Below are positions 16,843 to 37,027 of a stretch of 64,000 bases of DNA, in pieces (within the stretch, counting starts at the first letter, position 1; each line of letters starts with the position of its first letter). Source of the stretch: Patescibacteria group bacterium (GTDB taxonomy: Bacteria; Patescibacteriota; Minisyncoccia; Phycocordibacterales; UBA1550). The stretch spans positions 43,844 to 107,843 of the forward strand of contig JBBTWP010000005.1 in the NCBI GenBank assembly GCA_038062675.1. Direction: 5' to 3'. The translations under genes and the position numbers were made by a program. The notes below the pieces were generated by a model that saw only the letters and a list, made by a program, of their open reading frames with translations, did not search any database and was not told the DNA's origin.

Positions 16843-17475
16843 TTATTTTAATAAAACGTTTTCAAACAAGGACAGGGTCACATCATCGACATCTCGGACT
16901 TCATATACGGTTGCACCACTTGCTTTCCCTGATGCAATACCATGAGGAGAGTCTTCGACAATAATGCACTCCTCAGGAGAGACGTGGAGCTTTCCAAACG
17001 CCACCTGATATATTTCAGGGCTTGGCTTCGGGTTTGCCACCTCATCGTTCCCAATGATTATATCAAAAAAATCGAATAACTGGGCAGATTTTAACATCAA
17101 ATGAAGTGTTTCTTTCGTTGAGTTTGAACAACACCCCAGCTTAAAGCCCTGCTCTTTGAGGTGGCGTAAGAGAATAATCTTTGAGTAGTCTGGTGCGCAA
17201 TATTGGGGAATAATTTCTTTTGTGTATTTTTGCTTTATGCCGTTAATGAACTCTCTTAAACCAATTGGTAAGCGTTTCTGCTGCTCAAGCGTTTCCAGCT
17301 TTTTTCTTGTAGGCAGACCATTAAAATGACCATAATGTTCTTCTTCGTTTATGTGTACACCAAAAAGCCCCAGGGCTTTATTGAGCGCTTCATAGTGCCC
17401 GACGGGCATATTTACCAGTACGCCGTCCAAATCAAATAGGACCGCCTTAATTTCTCCAAGGTTAACATTATTCAT
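16843..17475 (-). CDS. HAD-superfamily hydrolase (beta-phosphoglucomutase-like subfamily IA)
   Basis: Motif I is AVLFDLDGVLVN and the C-terminus has ...IIVEDSPHGIASGKASGA. The start is set at ATG 17475 (MNNVNLGEIK...), which removes the overlap with the upstream methyltransferase gene. Confidence 0.8.
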   Translation of the reverse strand: MNNVNLGEIKAVLFDLDGVLVNMPVGHYEALNKALGLFGVHINEEEHYGHFNGLPTRKKLETLEQQKRLPIGLREFINGIKQKYTKEIIPQYCAPDYSKIILLRHLKEQGFKLGCCSNSTKETLHLMLKSAQLFDFFDIIIGNDEVANPKPSPEIYQVAFGKLHVSPEECIIVEDSPHGIASGKASGATVYEVRDVDDVTLSLFENVLLK

Positions 17476-17509
17476 AAGATTGCACAGTAATAGATTACCA
17501 AAATACTGA

Positions 17510-18322
17510 CTATTTTTCAATCTCGAACGTGGTACCATACCCAAAATTCCTCAAAACGCCATTTTTTTTATGAGCATCAAAAAATTTTATGAACGGTAAT
17601 AAAAATTCAAAATAAGGCAAACAAATACTCGATGCTTCATACGAAATTAATTTATAGCCATTCTTTTTGATTTTTCTTTTCATAACCCAGGGGAATCTGA
17701 AAACATGCGGGACTCCATCATTCCCCGCATATGATTCGTCGACACCCTCCTGGTTCAATATGAGAGCACGGCACATTTTTAAAAAACCAAAAGGTAGTGC
17801 AACAAAAGACCTCACCCCTTTCAAATAAAACCATCCGTGCCCAACCTGTACCAAAGAACACATGTTCAAGATTGTTGGTATCGCAACAACAGCGCGTTTC
17901 TTAGTGACCCTCATTATCTCTCTTAACCCCTGATCAAAATCAGGGAGATGTTCAAGTACGTGTGAGCTCACCACGAGATCAAACGTACTATCTGGAAATG
18001 GCAATTTTTCTGCATCGCCAACCAAAAAATTCGTGTTCATTTCAACATTATTTTCAATTGCATACAATTTTGATTTTTCAACATTTGGCCTAGACAAATC
18101 ACAACCTGTCACCACTGCACCCTTTTTTGCCATCATTATAGAGAGCACTCCCTCACCACACCCTGCATCAAGCACCTTCATCCCGGGAGTAACGAAGTTC
18201 AGTATGCTTTCATATTGCTTAACGTGAGCATATTGTCGCAAACGATACGGTGAACGTAGCCTCTTATCTATAATTTCATCAGCATAATCGCTGTAAAAAT
18301 TTTTTATGTCTTTACTTTGCAT
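17510..18322 (-). CDS. class I SAM-dependent methyltransferase
   Basis: Motif I is VLDAGCGEGVLSIMM. An acidic motif follows: DLVVSSHVLEHLPD. Confidence 0.82.
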   Translation of the reverse strand: MQSKDIKNFYSDYADEIIDKRLRSPYRLRQYAHVKQYESILNFVTPGMKVLDAGCGEGVLSIMMAKKGAVVTGCDLSRPNVEKSKLYAIENNVEMNTNFLVGDAEKLPFPDSTFDLVVSSHVLEHLPDFDQGLREIMRVTKKRAVVAIPTILNMCSLVQVGHGWFYLKGVRSFVALPFGFLKMCRALILNQEGVDESYAGNDGVPHVFRFPWVMKRKIKKNGYKLISYEASSICLPYFEFLLPFIKFFDAHKKNGVLRNFGYGTTFEIEK

Positions 18323-19475
18323 TTCTTTTTGTAAGCGCAGTGTACACTTCTACGGTCTTTTTACCAATAGCGACCCAACTTAATTCTTGCTCCGCATATC
18401 GTAAGGCAGCGGACACTCGTTTACTGTCGGGGGTCAAGATACTTTCACTAATAGCATCCGCCAGTTCTTGATATCGCTCATTCTCAAGAGAGAGCGGTGC
18501 GTCGTAATTAGACCCTTCCCACGACACAAGCCGCACAAGTCTCCCCCTTTCTTCATTTTTACCAAGGAGTTCTGGAAGTCCTCCAACTCTACTTGCCACA
18601 ATACTCTTCCCCATCCCCATGGCCTCTGCGCACGCAATACTCGATGACTCCGCAGTCGATGGGAACACTACTGTATCAGCAAGCTTAAGATATGCAGGAA
18701 TTTTATCATTCTCGACTGACCCAAGTACATCAACGTACTCATGAATACCGAGGTCATTAATCCGACTTTCAATATATTCCCTCATTCTACCGTCTCCGAT
18801 CATAATATATTTTAAACTTGGAACCTTTTTCACAATAAAAGGAATTGCTTCCACTAAAAAATGAATTCCATTTTTGGGAACAAGGCGACGCACCGTAACA
18901 ACAACACGAGTATTCTCATATTGTCGTTTCAAGCTGACTGGTATTTCAACTTTTCTATTAAACATTTCTGTATTGTATCCATTCAAAACAATACTAATTT
19001 TTTTATTAGGGACATATTTTCGTGCAACCTGAGCAAGATCATCCGAAGTAGAAATAATATGCGTTGAAAAAACGAGAGATATGTATCGATACAATGAATG
19101 GGCGCTGCGATAAACAAATTCAGCGTTGGGAATATCAAGCGTACCAAGCCCGTGCAATACTACTACGACAGGAATATTGCGTAATCTCCCGACAATACTT
19201 GCAATGGCAGCAAGGCGATAAGAATAATGACAATGAATTATATCTACTCCTTTTGATTCACGCCAAAGTAACCCGAAGAGTGACGGGATTCCACTTCTAC
19301 TCCACGGGATTCTGACCACAGGGTGATTGTTTTCAAAATCGCTTGTCTTGATTTCGTTTGTTACTAAAGTAATCTTATGCCCACCTTTCTCAAGCTCTTC
19401 AATTAAATTTTTAACATGAATTTCCGCTCCGCCGATCAGAGGGAGGAATGTGTCGCTGGTCATCAATATTTTCAT
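18312..19475 (-). CDS. GT4 family glycosyltransferase (GT-B fold)
   Basis: The N-terminus is MKILMTSDTFLPLIGGAEIHVKNL. The C-terminal domain carries the E-x7-E-like sugar-donor motif region ...IACAEAMGMGKSIVASRVGGLPELL. Confidence 0.88.
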   Translation of the reverse strand: MKILMTSDTFLPLIGGAEIHVKNLIEELEKGGHKITLVTNEIKTSDFENNHPVVRIPWSRSGIPSLFGLLWRESKGVDIIHCHYSYRLAAIASIVGRLRNIPVVVVLHGLGTLDIPNAEFVYRSAHSLYRYISLVFSTHIISTSDDLAQVARKYVPNKKISIVLNGYNTEMFNRKVEIPVSLKRQYENTRVVVTVRRLVPKNGIHFLVEAIPFIVKKVPSLKYIMIGDGRMREYIESRINDLGIHEYVDVLGSVENDKIPAYLKLADTVVFPSTAESSSIACAEAMGMGKSIVASRVGGLPELLGKNEERGRLVRLVSWEGSNYDAPLSLENERYQELADAISESILTPDSKRVSAALRYAEQELSWVAIGKKTVEVYTALTKRNAK

Positions 19476-20575
19476 ATATGTTTCAAAATAATATCAAGCA
19501 TTTTTTGAGAAGCGTCCCCTTTTCCAAAAGGTGACCCCCATTTTATTGAGTGTTCATTGTCCATTATTTCCTGGACACACTTCAAAATGCGTTTTTGAGA
19601 AACACCAGCGATACGATTTCCTCCCCCTACAAGTGTTTCGGGTCGCTCTGTATTATCACGCAAGGTTACGCAGGGAACCCTTAGAATCGATGCCTCCTCT
19701 TGTAGTCCCCCTGAATCCGTGAGAACTATTCGAGCATTACTGCTCAATTGAAGAAAATCAAGATACCCAACAGGCTCAATAAACTTAATTGCATTATCAA
19801 CATGAAGTCCGAAATATTTGATCATCTTGCTTGCGCGGGGATGTATCGGGAAAATAACAGGCATACTATATTTCTGAGTAATAAGCATGAGTCCGTTGAG
19901 GACGGACTGGAATCGCGCTTTGTCATCAACATTTTCCTGACGATGCGCAGTCACTAAAAAATATCCCTTTGGGGATAATTCCATTTTTTTCAAGATGCGA
20001 GAAGCTCTGGCGGTTTTCGTGTTTTGCATCACTGCATCAACAACAGTATTTCCCACAAGAAATATTTTTTTAGTGCTGATGTTTTCTTTTATTAAATTAT
20101 TTTTTGAGTCTTTTGTTGGAGTGAACAAAAAATCGGAGATATGATCAACCATCACCCGATTTAACTCCTCAGGCATTTGGCGATCATAAGATCGTAACCC
20201 CGCCTCAATATGCCCAACTGGGATATGGAGCTTCACCGCAGCTAGTGCGCCCGCTAAAACAGTATTTGTATCCCCTTGAACAAGAACGATGCTTGGTTTT
20301 TCTTTTACCAAGATTTCTTCTATCTCGATAAGCATTTTCCCCGTTTGTCCACCATGGGACCCTGAACCAGTCTGTAAGTTGTATTTTGCGGATGGCAAAT
20401 TCAGGTCTTTAAAAAAAACTTTATCAAGATTCTCAGAATAGTGTTGGTGGGTATGCAGTACAAAAAATGGCACTTTTCGCTTGATGCATTCGTGAATAAC
20501 GGGTGCCATTTTGACTATTTCGGGTCGAGTCCCAAAGACAAAACAAATCTGTTTATTTTTAGTATTTTTCATCAT
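19472..20575 (-). CDS. wecB: UDP-N-acetylglucosamine 2-epimerase (non-hydrolysing), WecB/MnaA family
   Basis: ICFVFGTRPEIVKMAPV...LVQGDTNTVLAGALAAVKLHIPVGHIEAGLRSYDRQMPEELNRVMVDHISD is a canonical epimerase_2 core. The start is placed at ATG 20575 (MMKNTKNK...), giving an ATGA overlap with the upstream gene. Confidence 0.9.
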   Translation of the reverse strand: MMKNTKNKQICFVFGTRPEIVKMAPVIHECIKRKVPFFVLHTHQHYSENLDKVFFKDLNLPSAKYNLQTGSGSHGGQTGKMLIEIEEILVKEKPSIVLVQGDTNTVLAGALAAVKLHIPVGHIEAGLRSYDRQMPEELNRVMVDHISDFLFTPTKDSKNNLIKENISTKKIFLVGNTVVDAVMQNTKTARASRILKKMELSPKGYFLVTAHRQENVDDKARFQSVLNGLMLITQKYSMPVIFPIHPRASKMIKYFGLHVDNAIKFIEPVGYLDFLQLSSNARIVLTDSGGLQEEASILRVPCVTLRDNTERPETLVGGGNRIAGVSQKRILKCVQEIMDNEHSIKWGSPFGKGDASQKMLDIILKHI

Positions 20576-21717
20576 ATCCCAATAAATGATAGTATCGTAG
20601 CGGCTCGTCTGTCCCATGTATATCTCTGCACATCTTTGCATGCTTGTTCTGCAATACTAGCCGAAAAGTCTTTATTTTTCAAGAGAGACAGTATACCGTT
20701 CAACAGACCATCAATATCTTCATTCTTGACAACAAGAGCGTTGCTTTCATTTAATATTTCTCTCACCGACGGCAGGTCTGAAGTAATAATCGGCACACCG
20801 CTCGCCATATACTCAAAAAGCTTAAGTGGTGACATGTAAAGTGCATAGTGTGGCATATTAGGATAGTTCATCACAAGTACGTCAGACGCTTTCATATACA
20901 TGAATGCTTCTTTCTGGGGAATATGTGTAACGATTTTATAATATTCCTCATCTACTCCTGCTCGCTGAAATACTTTTTTCACCTCCTCGACTTCATTCTC
21001 ATTTATCCCGACGAGAAGCAAGAACGCTTTTGGTAAAGCAGGTAAAACTTTTGAAAAACTAACGATGAGGTCATCGACCCCTTTTGGCTCGCCCATAGTT
21101 TTGTACTTACCAATATAGCCGATAATTTTTTTATCCCAAGGCAAACCTAAACGTCCCCTCAATTCTACTTGATTTTCCCCCATATTGAACTGCTTGATAT
21201 CCACCCCATCCGGCGCAACAAGTATCTTTCCTTTATTTACATCTTTTGTGACGTAAAAATCTTTGAGCCCTTGTGTGATTGAGATAATACCAAGCGCGGT
21301 CTGCAATACGCGAGCAGCAAAGAAATTTTCTTTTTTAGTGTGCGTTTCCCAAAAAATATTCTTTTTGAAGAAACCGATAAGGAACAGCGTCAATTCGTCG
21401 CGGGAATAGATTACTTGGGCATTTTTCGACAAAAGTGTGTAAAAAAATGCAAAAAAAGCAAATGAGGATGTTTGTATCCAGAAGCCGATTCTCCCTAGCA
21501 TAATGAGGTCAAGTGATGGAATTTTAGTAATTGTGAATTTTTTCTCCACCCCATAGTAAACAAAGGGGTCTTCCTTTATTTTGTTGAAGCGCCACGGAAC
21601 AACGAGCTCAACGGTTGCCCCAGCCGTGTTCGCGAAAGCTTCACACATCTTCATAATCTGGATACCGTGTGCTTTTTCTGTGGGCAATCGTATATTTGCG
21701 AGATAAATTAATTTCAT
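20572..21717 (-). CDS. GT4 family glycosyltransferase
   Basis: The N-terminus is MKLIYLANIRLPTEKAHGIQIM. The GT-B C-terminal domain is ...LFEYMASGVPIITSDLPSVREIL. Confidence 0.85.
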   Translation of the reverse strand: MKLIYLANIRLPTEKAHGIQIMKMCEAFANTAGATVELVVPWRFNKIKEDPFVYYGVEKKFTITKIPSLDLIMLGRIGFWIQTSSFAFFAFFYTLLSKNAQVIYSRDELTLFLIGFFKKNIFWETHTKKENFFAARVLQTALGIISITQGLKDFYVTKDVNKGKILVAPDGVDIKQFNMGENQVELRGRLGLPWDKKIIGYIGKYKTMGEPKGVDDLIVSFSKVLPALPKAFLLLVGINENEVEEVKKVFQRAGVDEEYYKIVTHIPQKEAFMYMKASDVLVMNYPNMPHYALYMSPLKLFEYMASGVPIITSDLPSVREILNESNALVVKNEDIDGLLNGILSLLKNKDFSASIAEQACKDVQRYTWDRRAATILSFIGI

Positions 21718-21718
21718 C

Positions 21719-22516
21719 TTATTTTTTGACCTTTACCAGAGAAATGAAGGCTTCTTTTATCAGCCAAATATGATAACAAGCATTATACCATTCATACAAA
21801 AACGGCATCCTCTTCCCTGATCCTCTCATAAATGTTAGCGCGTATTTGATTAAGTACTTCACAAAAATCAAAGAATTACTAAGAAAAAGACCTGAGAACG
21901 TCTTGGGTGTGACCTTCATGGTGTGAATTTGCATTTGGGCGTAGTTGTACCATTTTTTCTTTAGGGTACTGATATCACCCATAGGAACATACTCCGGGTT
22001 TTTCAATATTCCTATTTCGTATCCTTCTTTTACACTGATTCTTTCGTGAATTTTTTTTATGAAACCAAAAGTTGCCGGAATATAGAAAAAACGTAGTTGG
22101 TAATTAGGATACATAGAGGAACGCTCAACAACCTCGCCGTTTACCACATATTTTCTTGGTAATTTATACGCGTAGTGGATGTTATTTTGTTCTTGATTCA
22201 CAATCTCACGCATCTCAGCTACCGCCTCAGGAGAGAGGTATTCATCGCTGTCGATAAAAAGAAACCACGGGTATCTCGCCTGCTTGACCCCCTTGTTGCG
22301 AACTGCTGAGAAATCGTTAATCTTCACCTCTTTTTCTCGTGCATCAGTTTGAGGGATAACGCAGGCACCGTATTTTTCTGCAAGCGCAACCGTCCCGTCA
22401 GTGCTACCGCCGTCAAGAATAATTATATCTTCAAAATCGCGTACACTTTCGAGACAACGCTTTAATGTCTTTTCAGAGTTTAGGGTCAAAATTTCTACAC
22501 TGCAAGGTATTTTCAT
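21719..22516 (-). CDS. GT2 family glycosyltransferase
   Basis: SVEILTLNSEKTLKRCLESV...IIILDGGSTDGT and a DxD motif (FIDSDE). Confidence 0.85.
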   Translation of the reverse strand: MKIPCSVEILTLNSEKTLKRCLESVRDFEDIIILDGGSTDGTVALAEKYGACVIPQTDAREKEVKINDFSAVRNKGVKQARYPWFLFIDSDEYLSPEAVAEMREIVNQEQNNIHYAYKLPRKYVVNGEVVERSSMYPNYQLRFFYIPATFGFIKKIHERISVKEGYEIGILKNPEYVPMGDISTLKKKWYNYAQMQIHTMKVTPKTFSGLFLSNSLIFVKYLIKYALTFMRGSGKRMPFLYEWYNACYHIWLIKEAFISLVKVKK

Positions 22517-22521
22517 AAAAA

Positions 22522-24399
22522 TTATTCCATAAAACGCTTATACCAAATTTGAAAAGTAAAAATTGACCACAGGGTGTTTAGAGCGTACTTTTGTCCTGAT
22601 TGATGATCTTTTAAAATTTTTTGAATTGCATTAAAGTCAAACATATCTTTCGTGCCCACACAATAAGAAGGGGACAAGACTTCTTCAAAATAACCCTTCA
22701 AGTCTCCTCGTATCCATTTCGCTGCAGGGGAAAACCACCCCCATTTTGGCTGATCTAGAACAAAGTCTGGCAAATATGCCGACATCGCCCTTTTGAGGAT
22801 ATCCTTTCCTTTATATCCAGTGCCTGCTTTTCCTATATGGATTCCTTTTCCTCCTATTTTGTATTCTAAAGGGATGCGGTCCGCCAATTCCACCAAACGA
22901 TGATCCAAAAAAGGAACGCGTTGCTCAAGCCCTGAGGCCATAGACATTTTGTCGGACCTCACGAGTGATTCGCTTGGCAACCACGAAAGCAGGTCAGTTC
23001 GCATAAACTGCCTCGTGAAATTCTTTTTATCTACGGTATTAAAATATAGTTTTTTATACCATTCTGCAGTCGCGGCAGGATTGTTGTATTCACGGCAAAG
23101 AAACAACTCTATCTGATCTTCTTTCTGAGAAAGGAAATTCAAATACCGAGAAACTCCTGGTGGTGTGTTTATTTTTTCATAGAGACTACTTTTGCCCACT
23201 ATATCAAAGATAATTTCTGTTACTATATTTTTTCTTAAAAACTTTGGTATTTTTTGGAAACGATCTATTAAATAATTATAATAATAGCGTTCATACCCCC
23301 CGAATAATTCATCTCCCCCATCCCCACCCAACACAACCGCTACCTGTTTTGAAGCTTCACGTGCAAGCAAAAGATTTACTGCCTGTACATGGTTTGAGAT
23401 TGGCTCATCCATGTGGTATATGGAGTCCTCCAGACTATTTTTAATATCTTTCGGCGAAAGAATATATTCGTTGTGAATTGTTCCAAAATGATGGGCTGTT
23501 TTTCGTGCAACTTTTGCATCATTATTATACTTCTCTGCCTGTGCTGTTTCCTCAAATCCAACGGAGAATGTTTTTATATTTTTTGAGAATGAGCTAGCTA
23601 CGCCGGCAATAATTGTTGAATCGATGCCACCAGACAAAAATACTCCTACAGGACGATCGGAGACCAACTGCATCTTGATTGAGTCAGTAAGTAAATTTGA
23701 GATTTCAGACTCTAAATATTCCCTGTCATAAATGAGTGGTTTCTCCTCCATCTCCCAATATCGCTTAATTTCCATTTTTCCTCTTTCAACAACAGCGTAA
23801 TGCCCTGGCTCAAGTTTGTAAACATTTTCCCAAATAGTAAGAGGGGCAGGAACGTATAAAAGGCGAAAGTAAATATTTAATGCATCTTTATTTATAGTTT
23901 TATCTATCTTGTGCTTAAAAATAGCTTTTGCTTCTGAAGAAAAGATAAATACTCCCTCCTTATGGTAATAATAAAGTGGTTTTATGCCTACTCTGTCGCG
24001 CGCCAAAAATAACCGGCCTGTTTGATTGTCCAATATAGCAAAAGCAAACATCCCATTGAATTTCTCAAGGCAATCACTCCCCCATTCTTCGTATGCACAC
24101 AAAATTACTTCTGTATCAGTATCTGACACAAAGACATACCCTTTCGCAATAAGTTCTTTTCTTATATCTAAAAAATTATAGATTTCTCCATTATAAACAA
24201 TGGTATATCGCTTATCCTTGCCATGCATTGGTTGATGACCAGCTTGGCTTAAGTCAATAATCGACAAACGATTATGGCCGAGGGAGTAATTTGCAGACAA
24301 AAACACGCCCGCATCGTCCGGACCACGATGCTTCGTTGTTTCATTCATTTCGTGAATCAAGCCCTTATCTATGAAATTGAATCCGTTTATGCCACACAT
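22522..24399 (-). CDS. asnB: asparagine synthase (glutamine-hydrolysing)-family amidotransferase
   Basis: N-terminal nucleophile MCGINGF, a GATase-2 domain, then an ATP-pyrophosphatase PP-loop (VGVFLSGGIDSTIIAG). In glycan clusters such AsnB-like enzymes commonly amidate uronic acids. Confidence 0.9.
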   Translation of the reverse strand: MCGINGFNFIDKGLIHEMNETTKHRGPDDAGVFLSANYSLGHNRLSIIDLSQAGHQPMHGKDKRYTIVYNGEIYNFLDIRKELIAKGYVFVSDTDTEVILCAYEEWGSDCLEKFNGMFAFAILDNQTGRLFLARDRVGIKPLYYYHKEGVFIFSSEAKAIFKHKIDKTINKDALNIYFRLLYVPAPLTIWENVYKLEPGHYAVVERGKMEIKRYWEMEEKPLIYDREYLESEISNLLTDSIKMQLVSDRPVGVFLSGGIDSTIIAGVASSFSKNIKTFSVGFEETAQAEKYNNDAKVARKTAHHFGTIHNEYILSPKDIKNSLEDSIYHMDEPISNHVQAVNLLLAREASKQVAVVLGGDGGDELFGGYERYYYNYLIDRFQKIPKFLRKNIVTEIIFDIVGKSSLYEKINTPPGVSRYLNFLSQKEDQIELFLCREYNNPAATAEWYKKLYFNTVDKKNFTRQFMRTDLLSWLPSESLVRSDKMSMASGLEQRVPFLDHRLVELADRIPLEYKIGGKGIHIGKAGTGYKGKDILKRAMSAYLPDFVLDQPKWGWFSPAAKWIRGDLKGYFEEVLSPSYCVGTKDMFDFNAIQKILKDHQSGQKYALNTLWSIFTFQIWYKRFME

Positions 24400-24423
24400 G
24401 ATTGCTTTGTATTATACAATGAG

Positions 24424-25176
24424 TTAATCATTATCCCCAAAACTTGGTTTAGAAAAAATATCGTCCAGACTTGCCTTTCGTGCAACTACACCTATTTGCT
24501 GCCCAGATTGAGGAAAAATCTTCATAAAGAGCTTGGCAAATATATTTCTGGTTTTCCCAACATAAGCAATATTCTCTATTTTGAATCCGTGCATATTGAG
24601 AATTTGCCGAAGCATTGCCGGTCCAAAAAATATTTTATGCTGTGGTTGAGTAAGCAACCTTTTTTCAGTATTACGCAACACCAAAAAATTGTCTTTTGTT
24701 TCATTGTAGGTTAATTCTGACACATCACCTAACGAATCTTTTTTTCTAAAATAAATACGAAATACATTGATATAGCTAAAAACATTAGGGGTATCTATAA
24801 TCAGCTGTCCATCATCCTTAAGTATGCGCGCGCACTCCGAAATAATTTCTCCTGGCCTCCACGAGTGTTCAATAATTTCTCCGGCATAAATACAATCAAA
24901 CATCTTGTCTGGCACAACTCCCGAAAGATTGTGCAGATCTCCGATGTATTGATTCTTAATACCAAGCTTTTCCGCCAGATTCTTGTTAACATCAAGCCCA
25001 AAATATTCACCGCCATTGGATTCAACCATTTTTTCTAAATCAATATTTTTTTCGCCATCGCCCAAATTGCCAACATCTAATAGTTTCACTTTCTTCCCAT
25101 TCAAAAAATGAGCGACGTACTCCGTCCTAGACGGAAAAAATAGTGCTTCTTTTATACTAAAAAAAATATTTCTCAT
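24424..25176 (-). CDS. class I SAM-dependent methyltransferase
   Basis: Motif I is LLDVGNLGDGE (degenerate), followed by a DxxxxxGxxE-like segment (YAGEIIEHSWRPGEII). Low-GC. Confidence 0.7.
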   Translation of the reverse strand: MRNIFFSIKEALFFPSRTEYVAHFLNGKKVKLLDVGNLGDGEKNIDLEKMVESNGGEYFGLDVNKNLAEKLGIKNQYIGDLHNLSGVVPDKMFDCIYAGEIIEHSWRPGEIISECARILKDDGQLIIDTPNVFSYINVFRIYFRKKDSLGDVSELTYNETKDNFLVLRNTEKRLLTQPQHKIFFGPAMLRQILNMHGFKIENIAYVGKTRNIFAKLFMKIFPQSGQQIGVVARKASLDDIFSKPSFGDND

Positions 25177-25190
25177 ACAGTAAATTATTA

Positions 25191-26246
25191 TTATTTAAAC
25201 CTAGTTAATATCTCCACAATTCTCTTAGCTGTTTTACCGTCCCATAAAGGTATCGCTGTTTTTTGTTGACCTATGCGACGCTTCTTATAAGCCTTAAGGA
25301 TGTCTGCCTTCCGCGTGCCAGCAACAATATTTGTGCCGCAAGTCACCGTAATTGGCCTTTCTGTCTCATCGCGCAGTGTTATGCATGGGGTTCCCAGAAA
25401 ACTTGATTCCTCTTGCACTCCACCAGAGTCTGTAAGAACAAGCTTTGCATTTTTTTGATAAAAAAGAGATTCCTTATAGGAAAGTGGCGGGAGTAAGGAA
25501 AAAATCTTTTTCATTCTTTCGGTTAACTTAAACTTCTTTGCCATTTTTTCTGTTCGCGGATGAAGGGGTAAGTAGACCTTGTTGTTCTGCGCGATAATTT
25601 CAAGCGCATCGAGTATCCCACTGAACCTTTCTTTGTCATCCACGTTTTCCGCTCGGTGAAGCGTGCAGAAATAAAATTCTTCATTTGTTTTTTTCACTTC
25701 AGGCAAAAACATTTTAAGAGTATCAATCATGATGTTGCCAACAAAATAAACAGCACCATTTATTTTTTCTTTCTTTAAATTTTCTATTCCATTTTCTTCA
25801 GTAACAAAAAGCACATCAGATATCTGGTCAACAATAATCCGATTGATTTCCTCTGGCATTGTTCGGTTAAATGAACGTAGCCCTGCCTCTATGTGTGCAA
25901 GGGGAATCCCCATTTTGTTTGCCACAATCGCCCCAGCAAGTGTTGAATTAACATCACCCACCACTGCAACAAAAGAAGGTTTTTCTTTTTCAAAAATCTT
26001 ACCGAGCTCTGCTACGATTGCCGAAAATTGCGCTATCGCAGATGTGCGGGGAGGGTTAATAGTATAATGTGGCTTAATCCCGAATTCCCTTAGCAAATCT
26101 TCTGACATCTCTGTAGTGAAATGTTGCCCAGTATTTATAAGTGAATGCTTAATGTTTAATCTTTTTAATTCATGACAAAGAGGCGCAACTTTCATAAAAT
26201 TTGGTCTTGCGCCCGCTATTATCATAATGTTGTCTTTATTTTTCAT
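25191..26246 (-). CDS. UDP-N-acetylglucosamine 2-epimerase, second WecB-family paralog
   Basis: MIIAGARPNFMKVAPL...VVGDVNSTLAGAIVANKMGIPLAHIEAGLRSFNRTMPEEINRIIVDQISD is alignable throughout with the 19472-20575 paralog but clearly diverged. Confidence 0.88.
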   Translation of the reverse strand: MKNKDNIMIIAGARPNFMKVAPLCHELKRLNIKHSLINTGQHFTTEMSEDLLREFGIKPHYTINPPRTSAIAQFSAIVAELGKIFEKEKPSFVAVVGDVNSTLAGAIVANKMGIPLAHIEAGLRSFNRTMPEEINRIIVDQISDVLFVTEENGIENLKKEKINGAVYFVGNIMIDTLKMFLPEVKKTNEEFYFCTLHRAENVDDKERFSGILDALEIIAQNNKVYLPLHPRTEKMAKKFKLTERMKKIFSLLPPLSYKESLFYQKNAKLVLTDSGGVQEESSFLGTPCITLRDETERPITVTCGTNIVAGTRKADILKAYKKRRIGQQKTAIPLWDGKTAKRIVEILTRFK

Positions 26247-26255
26247 GACGGAGCG

Positions 26256-27263
26256 CTAATTATCTTCTGCGATTAATTTGCCTATTTTGCCAACAAGAGA
26301 CTTGAGGCTGTGCCCCTCTTCAACAATATCCCTCAGTTGATTCGCCTTATATCGTGACAATTCTCCAGAAAGGATAAACTTTGCAATATCTTCAGGGTTC
26401 TCACTATTGGGACAAATCGAAAGTCCGATAGCTTTTGAATTTCTTGGGGTAGTAACTGGGTATATACCAAAAATCATACCCTCAAGCATTGTTTTATCTA
26501 TCGTTTCTCGGGCCATGTTAATCATCACTCTATATGATGGGTAAATATTTTTTAGGTTGCCCATAGAAACGGGTCCTTTGAAGATCACTCTTTCCCTAAG
26601 ACCCTCTTTTTTTACCAATGCCTCGAGTTCCGCGTAGTAATCCTTCTCCACATCTCTACCATAGACAGTAAGTGTATATTCCTCGGGGAGATACTTTAAC
26701 GTAAGAATTCCTAGCTCTAATCGTTTAGAGCGACAAATACGGTGAACAGAAACAAGGTCAAAGGGAGATGCATTATTTTCTTTAGGAATACCGTCTTTCC
26801 AAAAATCAATATCTATGCCATGCCCGACTATGGTCTTTTTTGGATTACCTTCGTATTGAGGTAAGCTCTGTGGTGTCGCTGCAAACATTCTCTTACATAA
26901 AATACCAGATATCCACAAATGTATGTGCGTAGTATAATGAGTGTACCAAAGATAGATTGGCTTACGCGAAAGGAACCAATACCAGCCACCAAGAGTGACA
27001 TATTCTGGATTCATGTGCACAAAGACCCTGTCATAGTCAAGAGAAAATATTAATTTTAAAAAAATAAAAATTCTTTTGATTTTTTTAAAGCCTTTTTCCT
27101 TTCCCAAAGAAAATACTGGGAACGAGCCATCAAAATCCCCTTTTTCAAGACATATAACCTTAACTGATGCACCTTGATTAATAAACTCCTTGATCCACAA
27201 AATAACAAAAGCTAAGTCATCGTCGTTCTCGTTGATTTTCTGAGTAATAAAAAGTAGCCGCAT
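26256..27263 (-). CDS. glycosyltransferase (GT-B-like), low-GC
   Basis: 335 aa. Its N-terminus MRLLFITQKINENDDDLAFVILWIKEF... is homologous to the remnant ORF at 27282-27542. A C-terminal GT-B-like region follows. Confidence 0.65.
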   Translation of the reverse strand: MRLLFITQKINENDDDLAFVILWIKEFINQGASVKVICLEKGDFDGSFPVFSLGKEKGFKKIKRIFIFLKLIFSLDYDRVFVHMNPEYVTLGGWYWFLSRKPIYLWYTHYTTHIHLWISGILCKRMFAATPQSLPQYEGNPKKTIVGHGIDIDFWKDGIPKENNASPFDLVSVHRICRSKRLELGILTLKYLPEEYTLTVYGRDVEKDYYAELEALVKKEGLRERVIFKGPVSMGNLKNIYPSYRVMINMARETIDKTMLEGMIFGIYPVTTPRNSKAIGLSICPNSENPEDIAKFILSGELSRYKANQLRDIVEEGHSLKSLVGKIGKLIAEDN

Positions 27264-27281
27264 ATAATTATACTAAATGAA

Positions 27282-27542
27282 TTACAAATATTTTACCACA
27301 GCACATACGCTCCTCAAACAGATCGACCTTTTTGAATTTCCGAGCCCACCTCTTTCTTGCGCGAATAATTCCTTACCCAACGAAAACACGCGCACGTTCT
27401 TCGGCAGATCATACTCACCAACCCCAAGTGCAATGACGGTCACCTGCTCTGCGTGCTTCGCAAACTCACGAATCCACCCATGGAAAAATCCGAGGATATC
27501 GTCATTCTGGTCGACTTTTTGGGTGAGGATAAGGAGTTTCAT
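27282..27542 (-). pseudogene. N-terminal remnant (about 60 aa homologous) of a glycosyltransferase paralogous to 26256-27263
   Basis: MKLLILTQKVDQNDDILGFFHGWIREFAKHAEQVTVIALGVGEYD...FSLGKE aligns with MRLLFITQKINENDDDLAFVILWIKEFINQGASVKVICLEKGDFD...FSLGKE, then goes out of frame. GC is about 50%, versus about 36% for the intact paralog. Confidence 0.7.
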
Positions 27543-27545
27543 TTT

Positions 27546-27815
27546 TTATTCAAAAAGGTCGGAATGGGTGCCAGTACGTACAAGTATAATATCATTATCA
27601 TCGTATTTCCAAATCAAAAGCCAATCAAATTCTATGTGGCATTCCCAGCACCCTTCATATTCACCATGTAACTTGTGCGGACGAAACCTATCAGTAAGCC
27701 GTCCATCATTTTCAAGAATAAGCACGACTGCTATCAGTTTTTCAATATCCTTGCCTCTACGTTTTATACGACGGATATCCTTATCAAACTGCGGTTTTGT
27801 AATACTGCGACGCAT
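27546..27815 (-). CDS. yafQ: type II toxin, YafQ/RelE-family mRNA interferase
   Basis: 89 aa. ...HKLHGEYEGCWECHIEFDWLLIWKYDDNDIILVRTGTHSDLFE matches the YafQ C-terminal catalytic region (H...EC HI..DWLLIY...RTG.HSDLF). Confidence 0.88.
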   Translation of the reverse strand: MRRSITKPQFDKDIRRIKRRGKDIEKLIAVVLILENDGRLTDRFRPHKLHGEYEGCWECHIEFDWLLIWKYDDNDIILVRTGTHSDLFE

Positions 27816-27818
27816 ATT

Positions 27819-28085
27819 TTAAAGTGAGCGCATGTGCTTTGCAAAATCCTCAAAAGTGTCAAATGACATTAGATTTTTCTCGGATCGAGCTTCTTCAATC
27901 GCCTTGCGCGTTTCTCTGTTGGGCATACTCAGAGAAAAAGGAATTTCTTTATCATTGGCAATGCGTCGGTAAAATACGTTAATCGCTTCTGAGGGAGATA
28001 TACCGATCTGGGACAATACCATCTCTGCCTTCTTTTTTACTGATGGCTCTATGCGAGCACGAACGAAAGCTGTTTTTGTAGTCAT
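27819..28085 (-). CDS. dinJ: type II antitoxin, DinJ/RelB family
   Basis: MTTKTAFVRARIEPSVKKKAEMVLSQIGISPSEAINVFYRRI is the DinJ ribbon-helix-helix N-terminus. It lies 4 nt upstream of yafQ. Start is taken at ATG 28085. Confidence 0.85.
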   Translation of the reverse strand: MTTKTAFVRARIEPSVKKKAEMVLSQIGISPSEAINVFYRRIANDKEIPFSLSMPNRETRKAIEEARSEKNLMSFDTFEDFAKHMRSL

Positions 28086-28092
28086 ATGTATA

Positions 28093-28114
28093 TTGTAGCA
28101 CATATGTGCTACAA
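28093..28114. promoter_or_regulatory. perfect 22-bp palindromic operator upstream of dinJ-yafQ
   Basis: ttgtagcacatatgtgctacaa lies 8 nt upstream of the dinJ start. This is typical of TA autoregulatory operators bound by the RHH antitoxin. Confidence 0.6.
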
Positions 28115-28122
28115 CGCAATAC

Positions 28123-29808
28123 TTACAAATATTTTACCATATATGTTCCCTCGAGCTGGTATCCTTGTTTGCGATAGTATTCGCGCACGCCGATACCCGA
28201 GATAACCGCGAGTTTTTTGTACCCTGCTTCGCGCGCAATGCGTTCTGCCTCCAAGAGGAGTCGTTTCCCAAACCCCATGTGCTGACTTTGTGTTCCCACC
28301 TCCCCTACTTGCGCCATGCGCCCATACGTGTGAAGCTCGCGCACGAGCGCCGCACCCTGGAGCACCTCAAGCCCTGTCCCCACAAACTCCTGCCCATGAT
28401 TTTTCGGCAACCGCAAGCGCAAAAACGACGCGAGCTTGCCTTCATTCGCCTCTTCAAACGAAAGGAAAATTTCCCGCCCACTTCTCGTACGATACTCTTT
28501 CACCGTCAGTGGAAATTTCTCGAGTTCGACTTCCATCCCGCGCACTTCACGACAGCGAATGCACTTGCATCGCCAATTATTTTTCTTCATATCGTTGAAC
28601 AACCACTGGCGCAGATTTGAAACTTTACTTCCTGCTTGAATGTAGGTCGCAGGAATATCGCGAATCACCCGAATGATGCGCACGTATTTTGGGATTTGTT
28701 TTTTTGCACCCGCAAGCACACTCATGAGCTCCTCATCCGTGTACGGTTTAAATTTCCCCGCTTTCCAAATATCAAAAAGTTCACTTCCTTCGAGCACCAT
28801 GCAGGGATACATCTTAATCATGTCGGGATGAAAATCCTCACTCGAAAAAAGCTCGCCAAACATTTCAATATCACGCTGGGGCGTGCTCCCCTCCAAGTTT
28901 GGCATCATGTGGTACACAATCTTAAATCCCGCATTGCGCAAAAGCTCGGTTGCTTCTTTCACCGCACCAATCTTCATGTCGCGCTTGGTGAGCTCGAGCA
29001 CATCGTCGTCGAGATGCTGCACACCAATCTCCACCTTGGTCACCCCGAGGCTACGCAACCGCTCAAGCTCCTTTGGATTGATATAGTCTGGACGCGTCTC
29101 AATCGAAAGCCCAATGAGGCGCGTTCGTGCAGTTTCGTTTTCGTGCATCATCTCAGCGAATGTTTTTTGCCCCTTCGGCGTCTGCATCTCGGGGGGCACG
29201 TCAAAGTTATTGCATGCACGGTAACACTCCGCAAGAAATTCTTCCTGATACTTCGGATGATAAAAACTCCACGTACCGCCAATGACAATCATTTCGATTT
29301 TGTCGGTCTCGTGGCCGTTCATACGAAGCGCGAGCAAGCGACTCGTGATCTGGTCGTACGGATCAAAATCGTTCGCAAGAGCACGCGCCGCCGCCGGCTC
29401 TTTTGAAAGATAGCTCTTGGGCATGTTTGCTTCGGTAGGGCAATACGTGCATCGCCCTGGGCACGGGTAGGGCTTCGTAAGAAGTGAGACCACCGCAACC
29501 CCTGAGTTGCTCCGCGTTTTGAGCTTCTTAAGCACCAGCTCTGCGTTGGAATTCTTCTCTTCTTCTCCCGCCTCCACAAGCGCCTTATAGAACGCCAAGA
29601 GCTCGGCATTGGTAGGCACATGTGACCCATAAAACTCCTCAGAAATGGCCTCCAAGGGCATCAATTGCCCCGCAGGAAGCACTTTATTCTCCCGTGCGTG
29701 AATCTGCCTCCGCAGATCCAAAATACGCCCATAGAGCGCCGGATCAACCATGATTTTCCGCTTCAGGTTCTGCAGGTCCTTTTCGGTTTTGATATCAGTA
29801 AAAAGCAT
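28123..29808 (-). CDS. Elp3-like radical SAM / GNAT acetyltransferase (Elongator catalytic subunit homolog)
   Basis: Radical SAM cluster motif CPGRCTYCP (C-x3-C-x2-C) and a TIM-barrel rSAM region (LSIETRPDYINPKELERLRSLGVTKVEIGVQHLDD). C-terminal GNAT fold (QHMGFGKRLLLEAERIAREAGYKKLAVISGIGVREYYRKQGY). About 55% GC. Confidence 0.85.
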   Translation of the reverse strand: MLFTDIKTEKDLQNLKRKIMVDPALYGRILDLRRQIHARENKVLPAGQLMPLEAISEEFYGSHVPTNAELLAFYKALVEAGEEEKNSNAELVLKKLKTRSNSGVAVVSLLTKPYPCPGRCTYCPTEANMPKSYLSKEPAAARALANDFDPYDQITSRLLALRMNGHETDKIEMIVIGGTWSFYHPKYQEEFLAECYRACNNFDVPPEMQTPKGQKTFAEMMHENETARTRLIGLSIETRPDYINPKELERLRSLGVTKVEIGVQHLDDDVLELTKRDMKIGAVKEATELLRNAGFKIVYHMMPNLEGSTPQRDIEMFGELFSSEDFHPDMIKMYPCMVLEGSELFDIWKAGKFKPYTDEELMSVLAGAKKQIPKYVRIIRVIRDIPATYIQAGSKVSNLRQWLFNDMKKNNWRCKCIRCREVRGMEVELEKFPLTVKEYRTRSGREIFLSFEEANEGKLASFLRLRLPKNHGQEFVGTGLEVLQGAALVRELHTYGRMAQVGEVGTQSQHMGFGKRLLLEAERIAREAGYKKLAVISGIGVREYYRKQGYQLEGTYMVKYL

Positions 29809-29837: not shown

Positions 29838-30533
29838 ATGCGCCAAGAATATGCAAATAAAATCCTCGAGCAATCGCGCTCTGGGTACGAAACTATCGCC
29901 AGCGACTTCTCGCGTACCCGTGGCACATTTTGGCAAGAGCTGATGTTTGTTTACGACATGGTGCCACCCACGTCACGCATCCTCGACATCGGCTGTGGCA
30001 ATGGACGCTTTTTAAGCGCACTCAAAGACGACACGGTAGACTACACCGGCGTTGATTTTTCCAAAGGACTCATCGACATCGCAAAGGAACGCTACCGAGA
30101 ACGGCCACACGCCACATTTCAAACCGCCGACGCACTCGCCCTCCCTTTCTCCAACCACTCCTTCGACATAGCCGTATCGTTCGCCGTCCTCCACCACATT
30201 CCCTCGCGCGCGTATCGCATTCAATTTCTCAAAGAGGCCGCGCGCGTCATCAAACCGGGCAGCACCATCATCCTCACCGCGTGGAATGTCTGGCATTCCC
30301 GCCCATGGACCGTACTAAAATTCGCGCTTAAAAAATTACTCGGTCAAACACACACCGACGTTGGCGACGCACTCCTCGACTTCGGCAAAGAAAAAAACGT
30401 GCGCTTTGTGCACGCCCTCACCGCGCGCGAAATCCGCTCTCTCGCACGCGGTGCTGGCCTCACCATCACCCGCCTCGAGAAAATCCGCCGCCCGAGTGGT
30501 GAAGAAAATTTCTTTGTGGTACTCCAAGCGTAA
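29838..30533 (+). CDS. class I SAM-dependent methyltransferase (possibly Trm9/SmtA-like)
   Basis: Motif I is ILDIGCGNGRFLSAL, then VDFS, then DIAVSFAVLHHIP. Divergently transcribed from the Elp3-like gene with only 29 bp between the start codons. Confidence 0.8.
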   Translation: MRQEYANKILEQSRSGYETIASDFSRTRGTFWQELMFVYDMVPPTSRILDIGCGNGRFLSALKDDTVDYTGVDFSKGLIDIAKERYRERPHATFQTADALALPFSNHSFDIAVSFAVLHHIPSRAYRIQFLKEAARVIKPGSTIILTAWNVWHSRPWTVLKFALKKLLGQTHTDVGDALLDFGKEKNVRFVHALTAREIRSLARGAGLTITRLEKIRRPSGEENFFVVLQA

Positions 30534-30666
30534 CTCAAAAAACATCTGCCCAATTTGCTTGACGTACCCCCCCCCTCAAATGCTAGACTGCGCCGAGATG
30601 TACTTGCTTGCGCATTCCGCACGAGCATTTAGTTTGACAACGCAACAATACAGAAAGGGGTAATCT

Positions 30667-31935
30667 ATGAGACACTTGCAAAGGTGGTTTTTTGTTTTTA
30701 TGGTGAGTATGTGGTTCGCATCCTTGACACACGCCGACCAGATGACCTACCAACCGGGACCAGAAGGAACGGATGTTTGGATTACCAACACCTATGACTA
30801 TGGGAGTGACTATGGTGTTGATAACGACAAACTTGAGGCGGGCGGCTGGGGCGATGAGTATCGCTTTCTCTGGAAACCCGATTTCACGGGTTTCCCGCAA
30901 AATGCAACCTCGGCTGCTTTGTGGATGTTTCCTTACCCTCGCGGAGATGCTTCAACGCCAGTAAGCATGGCTGTTGATTTGATGACTACGCCATGGAACG
31001 AGGACACTGGGTGGTACAATACGGTAATGAATGGAATACCAGTTGGTGTTCTTTCAGCTCCAACACCAGGGCAATGGTACGGTATAAACATTACTCAAAT
31101 CTACAATCTGTGGAAGGCGGGAACGTACGCCAACCACGGCTTTAGATTTAGGCCGACGGGAATCAACAATCAGTTCTCGCAATTTTTGAGTTCTGATTTT
31201 TGGTACGGTCCGTATCGCCCGAAGGTTGTGGTTACCTACAAGGGCGCGGATTTACAATTTCCTCTTGCGAAACCGAGACCGGCGGGCTTTATTGGGCCAA
31301 TCATTCCTGTGTTCCTTTCACCGTATGCGGCACAGATTAATTCTGTGTTGGACCATTCGTTGACCACGGAAGCGTATTGCAAAGATGATGTCATTGTTGC
31401 ATATACGGGAGAGCGTGCGGAGGAGAAGTATGGAACATCTGGATGGATTGGTACGCCTTCGTCCACAAGATGTTCGGGCAAGACTTTAAACGGATACCGA
31501 CAAGACACCGTCGGAACACCTTTTGTTGTGAATGGAAACTATGGTGGAGGGGCATTTTTGTTCTATGACGGGCATGATGGGTATGACTTTCAAGCCGAGA
31601 ATGGAACAGATGTTCATGCTGCTGCGGATGGAAAAGTGTACAATTCAAACGCTGTTGGGGAAGAGAATGTGAGGATCGAGCATCCGAGCGGATATGTTAC
31701 TCAGTATTGGCACATGCCAAAACGATATGTAGTAGAGGGACAACTTGTTTCAAAAGGTCAAAAAATCGGTATCGTAGGAAAAGGGCACCTGCACTTTACG
31801 GTGAAGAAAGGTAAGCTTTCAGAACCAGCAAAACTGCAACTCGTCGACCCCTACGGCTGGAAAGGCGAGTATGGCACGGATCCACTCAAAGTTGACGGTA
31901 AAGACAATGCTTGTCTGTGGGCGGTTTGTCAGTAG
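30667..31935 (+). CDS. secreted M23-family (LytM-type) metallopeptidase with N-terminal accessory domain
   Basis: Signal peptide (WFFVFMVSMWFASLTHA). The C-terminal LytM domain carries HxxxD (YDGHDGYDF) and HxH (GHLHFTV) zinc ligands plus GQKIGIVG. RBS AAAGGGG lies 7 nt upstream. Confidence 0.85.
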   Translation: MRHLQRWFFVFMVSMWFASLTHADQMTYQPGPEGTDVWITNTYDYGSDYGVDNDKLEAGGWGDEYRFLWKPDFTGFPQNATSAALWMFPYPRGDASTPVSMAVDLMTTPWNEDTGWYNTVMNGIPVGVLSAPTPGQWYGINITQIYNLWKAGTYANHGFRFRPTGINNQFSQFLSSDFWYGPYRPKVVVTYKGADLQFPLAKPRPAGFIGPIIPVFLSPYAAQINSVLDHSLTTEAYCKDDVIVAYTGERAEEKYGTSGWIGTPSSTRCSGKTLNGYRQDTVGTPFVVNGNYGGGAFLFYDGHDGYDFQAENGTDVHAAADGKVYNSNAVGEENVRIEHPSGYVTQYWHMPKRYVVEGQLVSKGQKIGIVGKGHLHFTVKKGKLSEPAKLQLVDPYGWKGEYGTDPLKVDGKDNACLWAVCQ

Positions 31936-32016
31936 TTCCTTTGTGTTGTTGATGTTAAAAAGTTAAGCAATCATTCAATCTCCTTGCCGTTCGCGGTGAG
32001 GGGATTTTTTTTGTAA
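31842..32016. repeat. 175-bp direct repeat, copy 1 (3' end of M23-peptidase gene plus terminator region)
   Basis: Identical to 32719-32893 over 175 nt: tcgtcgacccctacggctggaaaggcgagtatggcacggatcc...gcggtgaggggattttttttgt. Confidence 0.9.
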
Positions 32017-32027
32017 ATATTTCCTTG

Positions 32028-32666: not shown

Positions 32667-32718
32667 AAAATGACTTTAGCATGTTTTGTTTGATATCCCA
32701 ACCACACTACACCCCAGT

Positions 32719-32893
32719 TCGTCGACCCCTACGGCTGGAAAGGCGAGTATGGCACGGATCCACTCAAAGTTGACGGTAAAGACAATGCTTGTCTGTGGGC
32801 GGTTTGTCAGTAGTTCCTTTGTGTTGTTGATGTTAAAAAGTTAAGCAATCATTCAATCTCCTTGCCGTTCGCGGTGAGGGGATTTTTTTTGTG
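32719..32893. repeat. 175-bp direct repeat, copy 2 (orphan copy of peptidase 3' end plus terminator)
   Basis: Exact copy of 31842-32016, 877 bp downstream. It is not part of any intact ORF. Confidence 0.9.
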
Positions 32894-32905
32894 AGTATTT
32901 TAGAA

Positions 32906-33553: not shown

Positions 33554-33670
33554 AAAATGACTTTAGCATGTTTTGCATAGTGTTGCCATCTTAATTTTCG
33601 ATGTAGTATTTCGTCTACTCAAAAAACCTTACTCCATGAGCCTAGCTTCGAAATCTTTACCGGCACAAAA

Positions 33671-35765: not shown

Positions 35766-35786
35766 AGTATCAGCAGTATAAAGCCA

Positions 35787-36902: not shown

Positions 36903-37027
36903 ACTTATGAAGATACCATTGTTGGGAAGTTTTGAGAAGCATTGACGTTGCGCGCATAACATGCAAGAATCAAAAAAGAACCTGTCGTTGAACCTTTTCA
37001 CTCAAGAAGCAACAAAGGAGATATGTC

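Follow-up and report, generated by a model that had tools for sequence, protein, structure and literature searches.

In the type VI secretion (T6SS) effector-immunity arrays of Vibrio cholerae, resident genes are displaced in a process attributed to homology-facilitated illegitimate recombination (HFIR), and the protective gene is retained (PMC5361080). Such arrays, and the C-terminal displacement in Rhs and contact-dependent inhibition (CDI) systems, have in common that an incoming module displaces resident genes beside a conserved anchor and that stubs with short duplicated homologies are left behind. In clusters of the O-antigen or capsule type, a low-GC, operon-like block of glycosyltransferases (GTs) and sugar-modifying enzymes, with a Wzy-like ligase and a flippase, is swapped wholesale next to a conserved flank. 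Features of both are found in a 64,000-nt stretch of DNA (the window, to whose positions all coordinates refer unless a relative is named) from contig JBBTWP010000005.1 of a Patescibacteria group bacterium (assembly GCA_038062675.1), where a dinJ-yafQ toxin-antitoxin (TA) pair and an 86-codon open reading frame (ORF) made largely of the 5' end of a GT gene (the stub) stand between a conserved gene of the Elp3 type and a low-GC glycan module (Table 1). With a probability of about one in two, what is seen here is the scar of a recombination that struck the proximal border of a hypervariable island of cell-surface glycan genes, a module having been replaced there in an HFIR-type event and the TA pair retained. 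According to a published report, Patescibacteria have kept their genes for homologous recombination and the machinery for competence (PMC12455944).

The locus also departs from these precedents. Where the T6SS arrays retain an immunity gene (PMC5361080), the window retains an antitoxin together with its toxin; the displaced genes would be those of glycan biosynthesis, the fragment left behind comes from the 5' and not from the 3' end of its gene, and a single scar per genome, with no array, is present both in the window and in its relative L058, the selective role of the TA pair being conjectural. In comparison with O-antigen and capsule-type clusters, the host belongs to the Patescibacteria (Candidate Phyla Radiation, CPR), the flank is a tRNA-modification gene, and the junction appears to be illegitimate rather than a clean homologous crossover. 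The relatives used for comparison are labelled L001, L053, L055, L056, L058, L137 to L140 and so on, L056 being contig SRR22387972_433038 and L137 contig SRR22387808_167624.

Every gene from ~11.4 kb to 29.8 kb lies tightly packed on the minus strand, in the order Elp3, dinJ, yafQ, 86-codon ORF, 335-aa GT, wecB, methyltransferase, asnB-like amidotransferase and further glycan genes. The conserved anchor of the locus is Elp3, whose product matches NCBIfam TIGR01211 ELP3 with 545 bits (cutoff 350), shows the radical-SAM plus C-terminal GNAT architecture (Pfam Radical_SAM, Radical_SAM_C and, weakly, Acetyltransf_1), and has orthologs of 70–77% identity in L001, L058 and L137. The step up to 50% GC falls at the Elp3 stop codon; Elp3 itself has 50.9% GC and 59% GC at third codon positions (GC3). 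On the other side a low-GC tract spans from ~10–12 kb to 28.1 kb, which includes the TA genes (39–41% GC) and is over its whole length an island for glycan biosynthesis, encoding among other things a Wzy-like ligase, a flippase, a nucleotidyltransferase and enzymes of the GT2 and GT4 types. Seven or more independent ENA/Logan assemblies from Hainich groundwater, which represent one population, show the locus arrangement with 99.9–100% identity, so that misassembly is ruled out. Intermediate haplotypes were sought among the contigs of the same population and none was found, all of them being 99.9–100% identical over the locus. Neither a tRNA nor an Rfam feature was found at the junction, and a scan of the region gave no terminator.

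The stub ORF extends over 27282–27542 on the minus strand (86 aa) and starts 3 nt past the yafQ stop codon. Its residues 1–58 are identical to the N-terminus of the intact GT downstream at 28 of 58 positions (48%, E 2e-14), in agreement with an earlier sequence-only reading of this DNA, which had noted homology over the first ~60 residues. Much closer counterparts exist in the relatives: over 58 aa the stub is 74% identical to the N-terminus of an intact GT in L001, 84% in L137 and 86% in L058, which matches or exceeds the figure for Elp3 (73–77%), and 74–86% remains the range for four relatives with the inclusion of L053. The stub is 84–86% identical to intact orthologs, compared with 79–84% among the intact genes themselves, and is thus without visible decay; its low divergence would fit a recent event. 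In the sequence-only reading the homology was thought to go out of frame after ~60 residues, which has to be revised: residues 62–74 (QERGGLGNSKRSI) align in frame with a variable loop that follows the conserved SLGKE motif in certain intact orthologs (P0002, ..EEQLRKRTDLKNSKRSV..; P0011, ..RKRPDLGNFKRSV..), the tail alone matching the loop with E 0.002, and the GT-derived part therefore reaches ~codon 75.

Among the GT-B enzymes of the GT4-like type (Glycos_transf_1/Glyco_trans_4), represented here by the intact GT of the window and by the native-type GTs of L001, L058 and L137, all of which match Glycos_transf_1, the part that the stub represents is the opening beta-alpha-beta units of the domain at the N-terminus. 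With ~75 of ~350 residues it lacks the whole C-terminal, nucleotide-sugar-binding Glycos_transf_1 domain, and because this catalytic domain is absent the stub cannot act as a GT; no Pfam or NCBIfam model matched it. Judged by its homologies, it is a gene fragment of the native GT-B glycosyltransferase adjacent to Elp3 or the TA pair, not a member enzyme, and its earlier designation as the 5' stub of the native GT was apt. The contrast in composition that had been claimed (~50% GC for the remnant, ~36% for the intact GT) is clear, the measured values being 46.7% (GC3 54%) and 37.7% (GC3 36%).

A homolog search did not turn up the stub as a conserved small gene or as a recurrent stub. It gave short proteins only; where these came from long contigs (P0003, P0004), they proved to be the N-terminal half of a full-length GT gene that is split and does not lie beside Elp3, and none of the 50 matches carried an Elp3-like tail; the excess of short matches appears to be a property of the search. 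An independent, conserved small gene, which would have spoken against the sequence-only reading, was accordingly not seen in related genomes. In L053 (ERZ1286166 contig_2437) many GT genes are split into two adjacent ORFs (221+165, 239+140 and 97+218 aa), which suggests indel errors of long-read assembly rather than real pseudogenes.

The key structural clue, absent from the sequence-only reading, is a duplication of the Elp3 3' end. The final 17 nt of the stub ORF (27282–27298) are an exact copy of the final 17 nt of Elp3 (28123–28139) at a spacing of 841 bp, and this repeat brackets exactly dinJ, yafQ and the stub. The chance expectation of a 17-nt match is 0.02 according to dinucleotide-preserving shuffles, and that of error-free direct repeats 17 nt or longer and no more than 2 kb apart is 0.04 per window according to first-order Markov simulations; the sole other such repeat in the window is a gene duplication at 31.8–32.8 kb. 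The Elp3-end copy fused to the stub, termed E′, may extend further, as its 5' part (~22–24 nt before the exact 17-mer) is weakly similar to the Elp3 end (p ~0.02) and to the corresponding copy in L058 (p ~0.04). After repair of a 1-nt deletion and a 5-nt insertion, E′ reads LFEGAYVVKYL-stop.

Two other derivations of this junction were discarded. An origin of the 5' part of E′ from the GT loop sequence of L137 found no significant similarity (p 0.19), and a cut of the native GT at a conserved K-Y motif through "KY microhomology" with the Elp3 VKYL end was dropped, as L058 has a 30-nt Elp3-end copy after a stub cut at another codon. A perfect 14-nt inverted repeat between the stub loop (27324–27337) and the yafQ 3' end (27548–27561) is probably a coincidence, 1.85 being expected per window. 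Inside the Elp3-end copy lies a promoter-like sequence, TTGAGG-16 nt-TGgTAAAAT (27290–27317, minus strand), whose 16-nt spacing is created by the two small indels that separate E′ from the true Elp3 end; a promoter scan of the region showed no enrichment over shuffles (6 sites against 3.5±1.9).

The state from which this arrangement would have arisen can be read from the relatives. In L001 (Elp3 72–74% identical to that of the window) a full 351-aa GT, the one with the 74% match to the stub, begins 1 nt after the Elp3 stop codon, and the intact GT of the window is just 34% identical to it. In L137 (Elp3 70–73%) Elp3 is followed by dinJ (83%), yafQ (79%) and a full 355-aa GT, and the junctions between the Elp3 stop codon and the dinJ palindrome, and between the yafQ stop codon and the GT start, are homologous to those of the window; in L139 the order dinJ-yafQ-GT is found as well. 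Because the order in L137 and L139 goes along with homologous junctions on both sides of the TA pair, the clade already had the pair in place between Elp3 and its native GT. The comparisons show Elp3, dinJ-yafQ, native GT, as still present in L137, to be the ancestral order as far as it can be reconstructed from extant sequences. The TA pair does sit immediately upstream of the remnant (yafQ at 27546–27815, dinJ at 27819–28085 or, in its longest ORF, 28103), as had been stated; the proposal that it marks the junction is untenable, as the real junction lies on the other side of the stub, at ~27282–27320. This GT or TA pair stood next to Elp3 at 0 of 42 other Elp3 loci in reference genomes and at 0 of 77 in metagenomes, loci that are uninformative for the junction. 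The adjacency is thus clade-specific, and the stub is best read as vertically inherited native sequence.

The DNA on the far side of the stub is of a different kind. The intact GT that opens the module matches Pfam Glycos_transf_1 (PF00534) with 33.1 bits (cutoff 26.4), which places it among the GT-B, GT4-like enzymes, and has more than 1300 full-length homologs of 60–85% identity, with orthologs at 84–85% in L055 and L056 and at 60–77% across many Patescibacteria classes. To the native-type GTs it is just 30–35% identical, and by these identities it is assigned to a different, low-GC orthogroup. The module as a whole aligns with L056 in blastn at 87% nucleotide identity over 21743–27270 and at 75% over 16861–21721, its proteins being 85–96% identical, and the homology ends 7 nt upstream of the GT start codon. 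L055 and L056, on contigs with ~38% GC throughout, keep the module order GT, wecB, methyltransferase, asnB, GT2, GT4, wecB, GT, methyltransferase. The GC3 of the module is 33–42%, compared with 59% in Elp3, and the compositional discontinuity that the sequence-only reading presupposed is therefore present when GC and GC3 are quantified. Of the foreign low-GC cassette it had drawn at 22522–27263, the foreign-like character stands (75–87% nucleotide identity elsewhere) and the limits were too narrow. Native downstream genes of L001, L137, L139 and L058 have no ortholog-level match in the window. The claim that native genes were replaced agrees with this absence; that replacement accounts for the stub is less straightforward, for L058 keeps an intact native GT beside its stub and Elp3-end copy, and a stub of this kind need not be the remnant of a replaced gene.

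L058 (Elp3 76–77% identical) provides a second, analogous scar. Elp3 is followed there by a DUF4143 ATPase gene, which runs on the opposite strand, and then by dinJ, yafQ, a GT stub of 37–39 codons, an Elp3-end copy, a PemK/MazF-like toxin gene and the intact native-type GT. The E′ of L058 is a 30-nt copy (28/30) of the 3' end of its own Elp3; in the frame of its stop codon it encodes GILFEGTYMVKYL-stop, where the resident Elp3 ends GYALEGTYMVKYL-stop, and judged by this translation it is an intact Elp3-type C-terminus of an allele different from the resident one. The succession of yafQ, GT 5' fragment, Elp3 3' fragment and next gene thus occurs in two lineages, the window and L058, which also have in common a divergent methyltransferase gene upstream of Elp3 (68%). 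Such a structure is expected from an unequal or illegitimate crossover between a TA-bearing haplotype and one with Elp3 directly before other genes. Further genes of the TA or defence type are found right after Elp3, namely the DUF4143/AAA_14 ATPase (7680–8849) and the solitary PemK/MazF-like toxin gene (10183–10575) of L058, and an AbrB/MazE-like 62-aa ORF in L059 (4663–4851), which suggests that the position after Elp3 is a hot spot for them.

Taken as an HFIR-type replacement, the scar would have formed as follows, with regard to order, direction and mechanism. The resident order would have been Elp3, dinJ-yafQ, native GT and further glycan genes, and the donor a TA-less haplotype with Elp3 directly before the low-GC module headed by the GT at 26256–27263. 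The incoming DNA would start ~17–40 nt before the Elp3 stop codon, the proximal crossover then not lying in Elp3; an illegitimate join would have connected it to the resident GT at ~codon 75–80, with a homologous anchor at the distal end. Everything distal of the joint would have been replaced and the TA pair kept, leaving a chimeric in-frame ORF (GT codons 1 to ~75 plus the final Elp3 codons and stop), the 17-nt repeat around 841 bp and an intact TA pair. Of the hallmarks of an HFIR scar, a novel joint of non-homologous sequences near conserved DNA and a short duplicated sequence are found in the fusion of the GT 5' fragment to the Elp3 3'-end copy, with the analogous joint in L058. Counted in favour of this interpretation are the orthology of stub and GT, the 17-nt repeat, the order in L137, the scar in L058, the identity of the module with L056, the contrast in GC and GC3, the absence of native downstream genes and the intact TA pair.

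Several points weigh against it. The TA-less haplotype with Elp3 before the low-GC GT was not found, and L055 and L056 have a UDP-glucose-dehydrogenase-like gene, not Elp3, upstream of the ortholog of this GT. The homology with L056 continues to at least 16861, the end of the fetched locus, without reaching a distal (left) end of the replaced segment. The exact joint is ambiguous, and can be placed only within 27299–27320, because the 5' part of E′ resembles the Elp3 end weakly. The E′ of L058 is known from a single contig. Since the window and L058 look like sister lineages and both carry the scar, the joint between stub and Elp3 end may predate the arrival of the low-GC module. Finally, the same structure would result if the 841-bp segment with the TA pair and the stub had been the incoming DNA.

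This reversed direction is unlikely, and of the alternatives it fares best. It supposes that Elp3 stood directly before the low-GC module first, and that the 841-bp piece (Elp3 3' end, dinJ, yafQ and the first ~75 GT codons) came in from a TA-bearing relative, either through HFIR anchored in Elp3 or, after circularisation of the fragment, through one crossover within the short homology of the Elp3 end, both of which duplicate the Elp3 end. It can be rationalized in this way that the 17-nt repeat brackets exactly dinJ, yafQ and the stub, as a Campbell-type or duplicative insertion would do, and the exact final 17 nt together with the diverged 5' part of E′ fit a crossover inside that stretch. 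The DinJ-YafQ family is 70–94% identical across diverse Patescibacteria, and its closest homolog, in L138 (89% and 94%), lies in a different context (AbiEii/NYN), which suggests a horizontally mobile TA pair. On the other hand, 17–40 nt is very short for homologous integration, and the backbone more likely carried the TA-GT arrangement, because the closest Elp3 relatives (L001, L058 and L137) all have a native-type GT after Elp3 or the TA pair, the stub is core-like in composition (GC3 54%) and the module is the compositional outlier.

A single, older event shared with L058 must be considered rather unlikely. The joint of GT fragment and Elp3 end would then go back to one event in an ancestor shared by the window and L058, an unequal or illegitimate crossover of two haplotypes that amounts to a tandem duplication of the segment from the Elp3 end to the GT start, and the DNA past E′ would have been swapped later and independently, for the MazF-like gene and native GT in L058 and for the low-GC module in the window. 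The stubs speak for and against such an ancestor: the stub-to-stub identity of 76% is compatible with two relaxed branches, while the lengths are unequal (~75 versus 37–39 codons) and the L058 stub is nearest to the full GT of its own genome (84–89% at the nucleotide level). Both lineages share the divergent methyltransferase gene, the TA pair, the stub and E′, and both E′ copies, which seemingly start at the same position, have CT(G/T)TTTGAGG where resident Elp3 genes have CTCGA(G/A)GG (p ~0.04). The 3' part of each E′, however, matches the Elp3 allele of its own genome at 3–4 lineage-specific sites, and gene conversion would be needed to explain this.

It is highly improbable that the 86-aa ORF has been kept as a working small gene, encoding for instance a piece of a GT-B N-domain with a regulatory or scaffold role and coupled in translation to yafQ. 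Its 86 codons are intact, its start lies directly behind the yafQ stop codon, its divergence is no greater than that of intact orthologs, and it is identical in all assemblies of the population; yet elsewhere it is not conserved as a small gene, the other short matches being halves of split or truncated full-length genes, the L058 stub differs in length and in the reading frame of its end, and the ORF belongs to no known family. Direct repeats of a gene 3' end around inserted DNA are typical of integrase-mediated insertion. A site-specific TA cassette with the Elp3 3' end as attachment site and the repeats as attL and attR can nevertheless scarcely be the explanation, even with such repeats flanking the segment and with TA-type genes recurring right after Elp3 in four lineages, as the 841-bp segment and its immediate surroundings are free of integrase and recombinase genes (dinJ, yafQ and the stub are all that the repeats enclose; no scan for integrases covered the whole window), neither a tRNA nor any known RNA lies close by, the segment holds a chromosomal GT fragment not expected of an att-based cassette, and L137 has the TA pair after Elp3 without any repeat.

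Within the HFIR-type interpretation, an active role for the TA pair is conceivable, though doubtful. An ordinary homologous crossover in Elp3 would delete dinJ-yafQ and lead to post-segregational killing, so that only rare recombinants joined downstream of yafQ would survive, which would make chimeric stubs again and again where a lineage bears the TA pair, as do the window and L058. Retention of the Elp3-end copy might also be due to a promoter that it carries for the incoming glycan operon.

Table 1. Features of the Elp3-glycan island junction in the window.
Feature	Coordinates	Strand	Basis
Elp3-type radical-SAM/GNAT tRNA-modification gene, 561 aa, 51% GC	28123..29808	-	TIGR01211, Pfam, orthologs
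Direct repeat copy 1 (E): last 17 nt of Elp3, TGGTAAAATATTTGTAA (..V-K-Y-L-stop)	28123..28139	-	exact repeat
Perfect 22-nt palindrome upstream of dinJ, TTGTAGCACATATGTGCTACAA	28093..28114	.	predicted operator
dinJ/relB-family antitoxin gene, 88 aa (longest ORF reaches 28103)	27819..28085	-	Pfam RelB, TIGR02384, PDB DinJ
yafQ-family (RelE/ParE fold) toxin gene, 89 aa, 3 nt after dinJ	27546..27815	-	Pfam YafQ_toxin, TIGR02385, PDB 4ml2
GT-derived part of stub ORF, codons 1 to ~75	27318..27542	-	74–86% aa identity to intact GT N-termini
E′: Elp3 3'-end copy fused to stub, giving the final codons and stop of the stub	27282..27320	-	exact 17 nt at 27282-27298
Intact low-GC GT-B glycosyltransferase, 335 aa, 37.7% GC, first gene of module	26256..27263	-	Pfam Glycos_transf_1, orthologs
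Low-GC glycan module: GT, wecB, methyltransferase, asnB-like amidotransferase, GT2, GT4, wecB, GT, methyltransferase, HAD	16861..27270	-	blastn to L056

The TA pair itself looks functional and is probably a classical autoregulated type II module, as predicted from its sequence. DinJ exceeds the thresholds of Pfam RelB (PF04221; 56.4 bits, cutoff 22.4) and TIGR02384 RelB_DinJ (68.5 bits, cutoff 45.65), is related to the structures of E. coli DinJ (PDB 4ml0/4q2u, E 1e-08), and is encoded upstream of and co-oriented with the toxin gene, with an operator-like palindrome at the promoter. YafQ matches Pfam YafQ_toxin (PF15738) with 107.4 bits (cutoff 30) and TIGR02385 RelE_StbE with 71.5 bits (cutoff 27.9); with the narrow TIGR00053 YafQ model it reaches 61.4 bits, under the cutoff of 87.25. 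In the alignment to E. coli YafQ (PDB 4ml2, E 1.6e-13) the segments KDHPL/RPHKL, DAHVE/ECHIE, EPDW/EFDW and GTHAALF/GTHSDLF correspond to one another. The catalytic residues of the E. coli enzyme, which we take to be His50, His63, Asp67, His87 and Phe91, are conserved at all five positions (His/His/Asp/His/Phe) in YafQ of the window, which is probably a ribosome-dependent mRNA endonuclease neutralised by DinJ. The palindrome overlaps with a TACAAT box located 6 nt ahead of the ATG of dinJ (28085), imperfect versions stand at the same place in L058, L137 and L139, and it is likely the operator of DinJ-YafQ; with this placement the dinJ transcript may be leaderless or near-leaderless.

The pair thus resembles E. 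coli DinJ-YafQ in the order of antitoxin and toxin, the 3-nt gap, the lengths of 88 and 89 aa, the promoter palindrome and the conserved active-site positions of YafQ. It differs in that the proteins are ~30% identical to those of E. coli, and in that it sits, with Elp3 on one side and a GT on the other, within a densely packed glycan operon, a position at which it recurs in several Patescibacteria. In five of the six contexts examined, among them L137, L139, L140, L058 and the window, dinJ-yafQ lies directly upstream of a GT gene; L140, which lacks Elp3, has a GT of another type there. The toxin gene of L058 looks mosaic, as judged from its product: the C-terminal half of this YafQ (9735–10019) is ~89% identical to that of the window, and the N-terminal half is unrelated in sequence, yet the whole YafQ model is matched.

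Variability extends to the other flank of Elp3. Some 5 kb (29838–34576), which encode a methyltransferase, an M23 peptidase, a DUF5677 protein and two paralogs, separate Elp3 from a GT pair at 34659–37001; that GT stands right next to Elp3 in L137 and L001, and L058 has the methyltransferase too. A 234-nt direct repeat of 92.7% identity (31841–32074 and 32719–32952) links the 3' end of the M23-peptidase gene with a paralogous pair of ~212-aa genes (ORFs 32028–32666 and 32906–33553) that match no Pfam or NCBIfam family. The only differences between contig L044 and the window fall around 33367–33521, which indicates that the repeat region is assembly-variable.

The gene families at this locus are known and the process is a known kind of genome-island exchange, the scar being instructive and essentially ordinary; its interest lies mainly in the clean anatomy of the junction, the recurrence in a second lineage and the testable idea of a TA guard. 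In annotations, "chimeric pseudogene fragment" would be the proper label for the 86-aa ORF, rather than "hypothetical protein". If correctly interpreted, the locus is an example, resolved to the base pair, of glycan-island exchange in ultra-small uncultivated Patescibacteria, in which a module would have been swapped beside a conserved gene via an illegitimate joint, with DinJ-YafQ stably wedged at the head of such glycan operons in several lineages. Should it be true that the TA pair biases which recombination joints survive, this would be a simple and testable route by which addiction modules may shape the evolution of genome islands.

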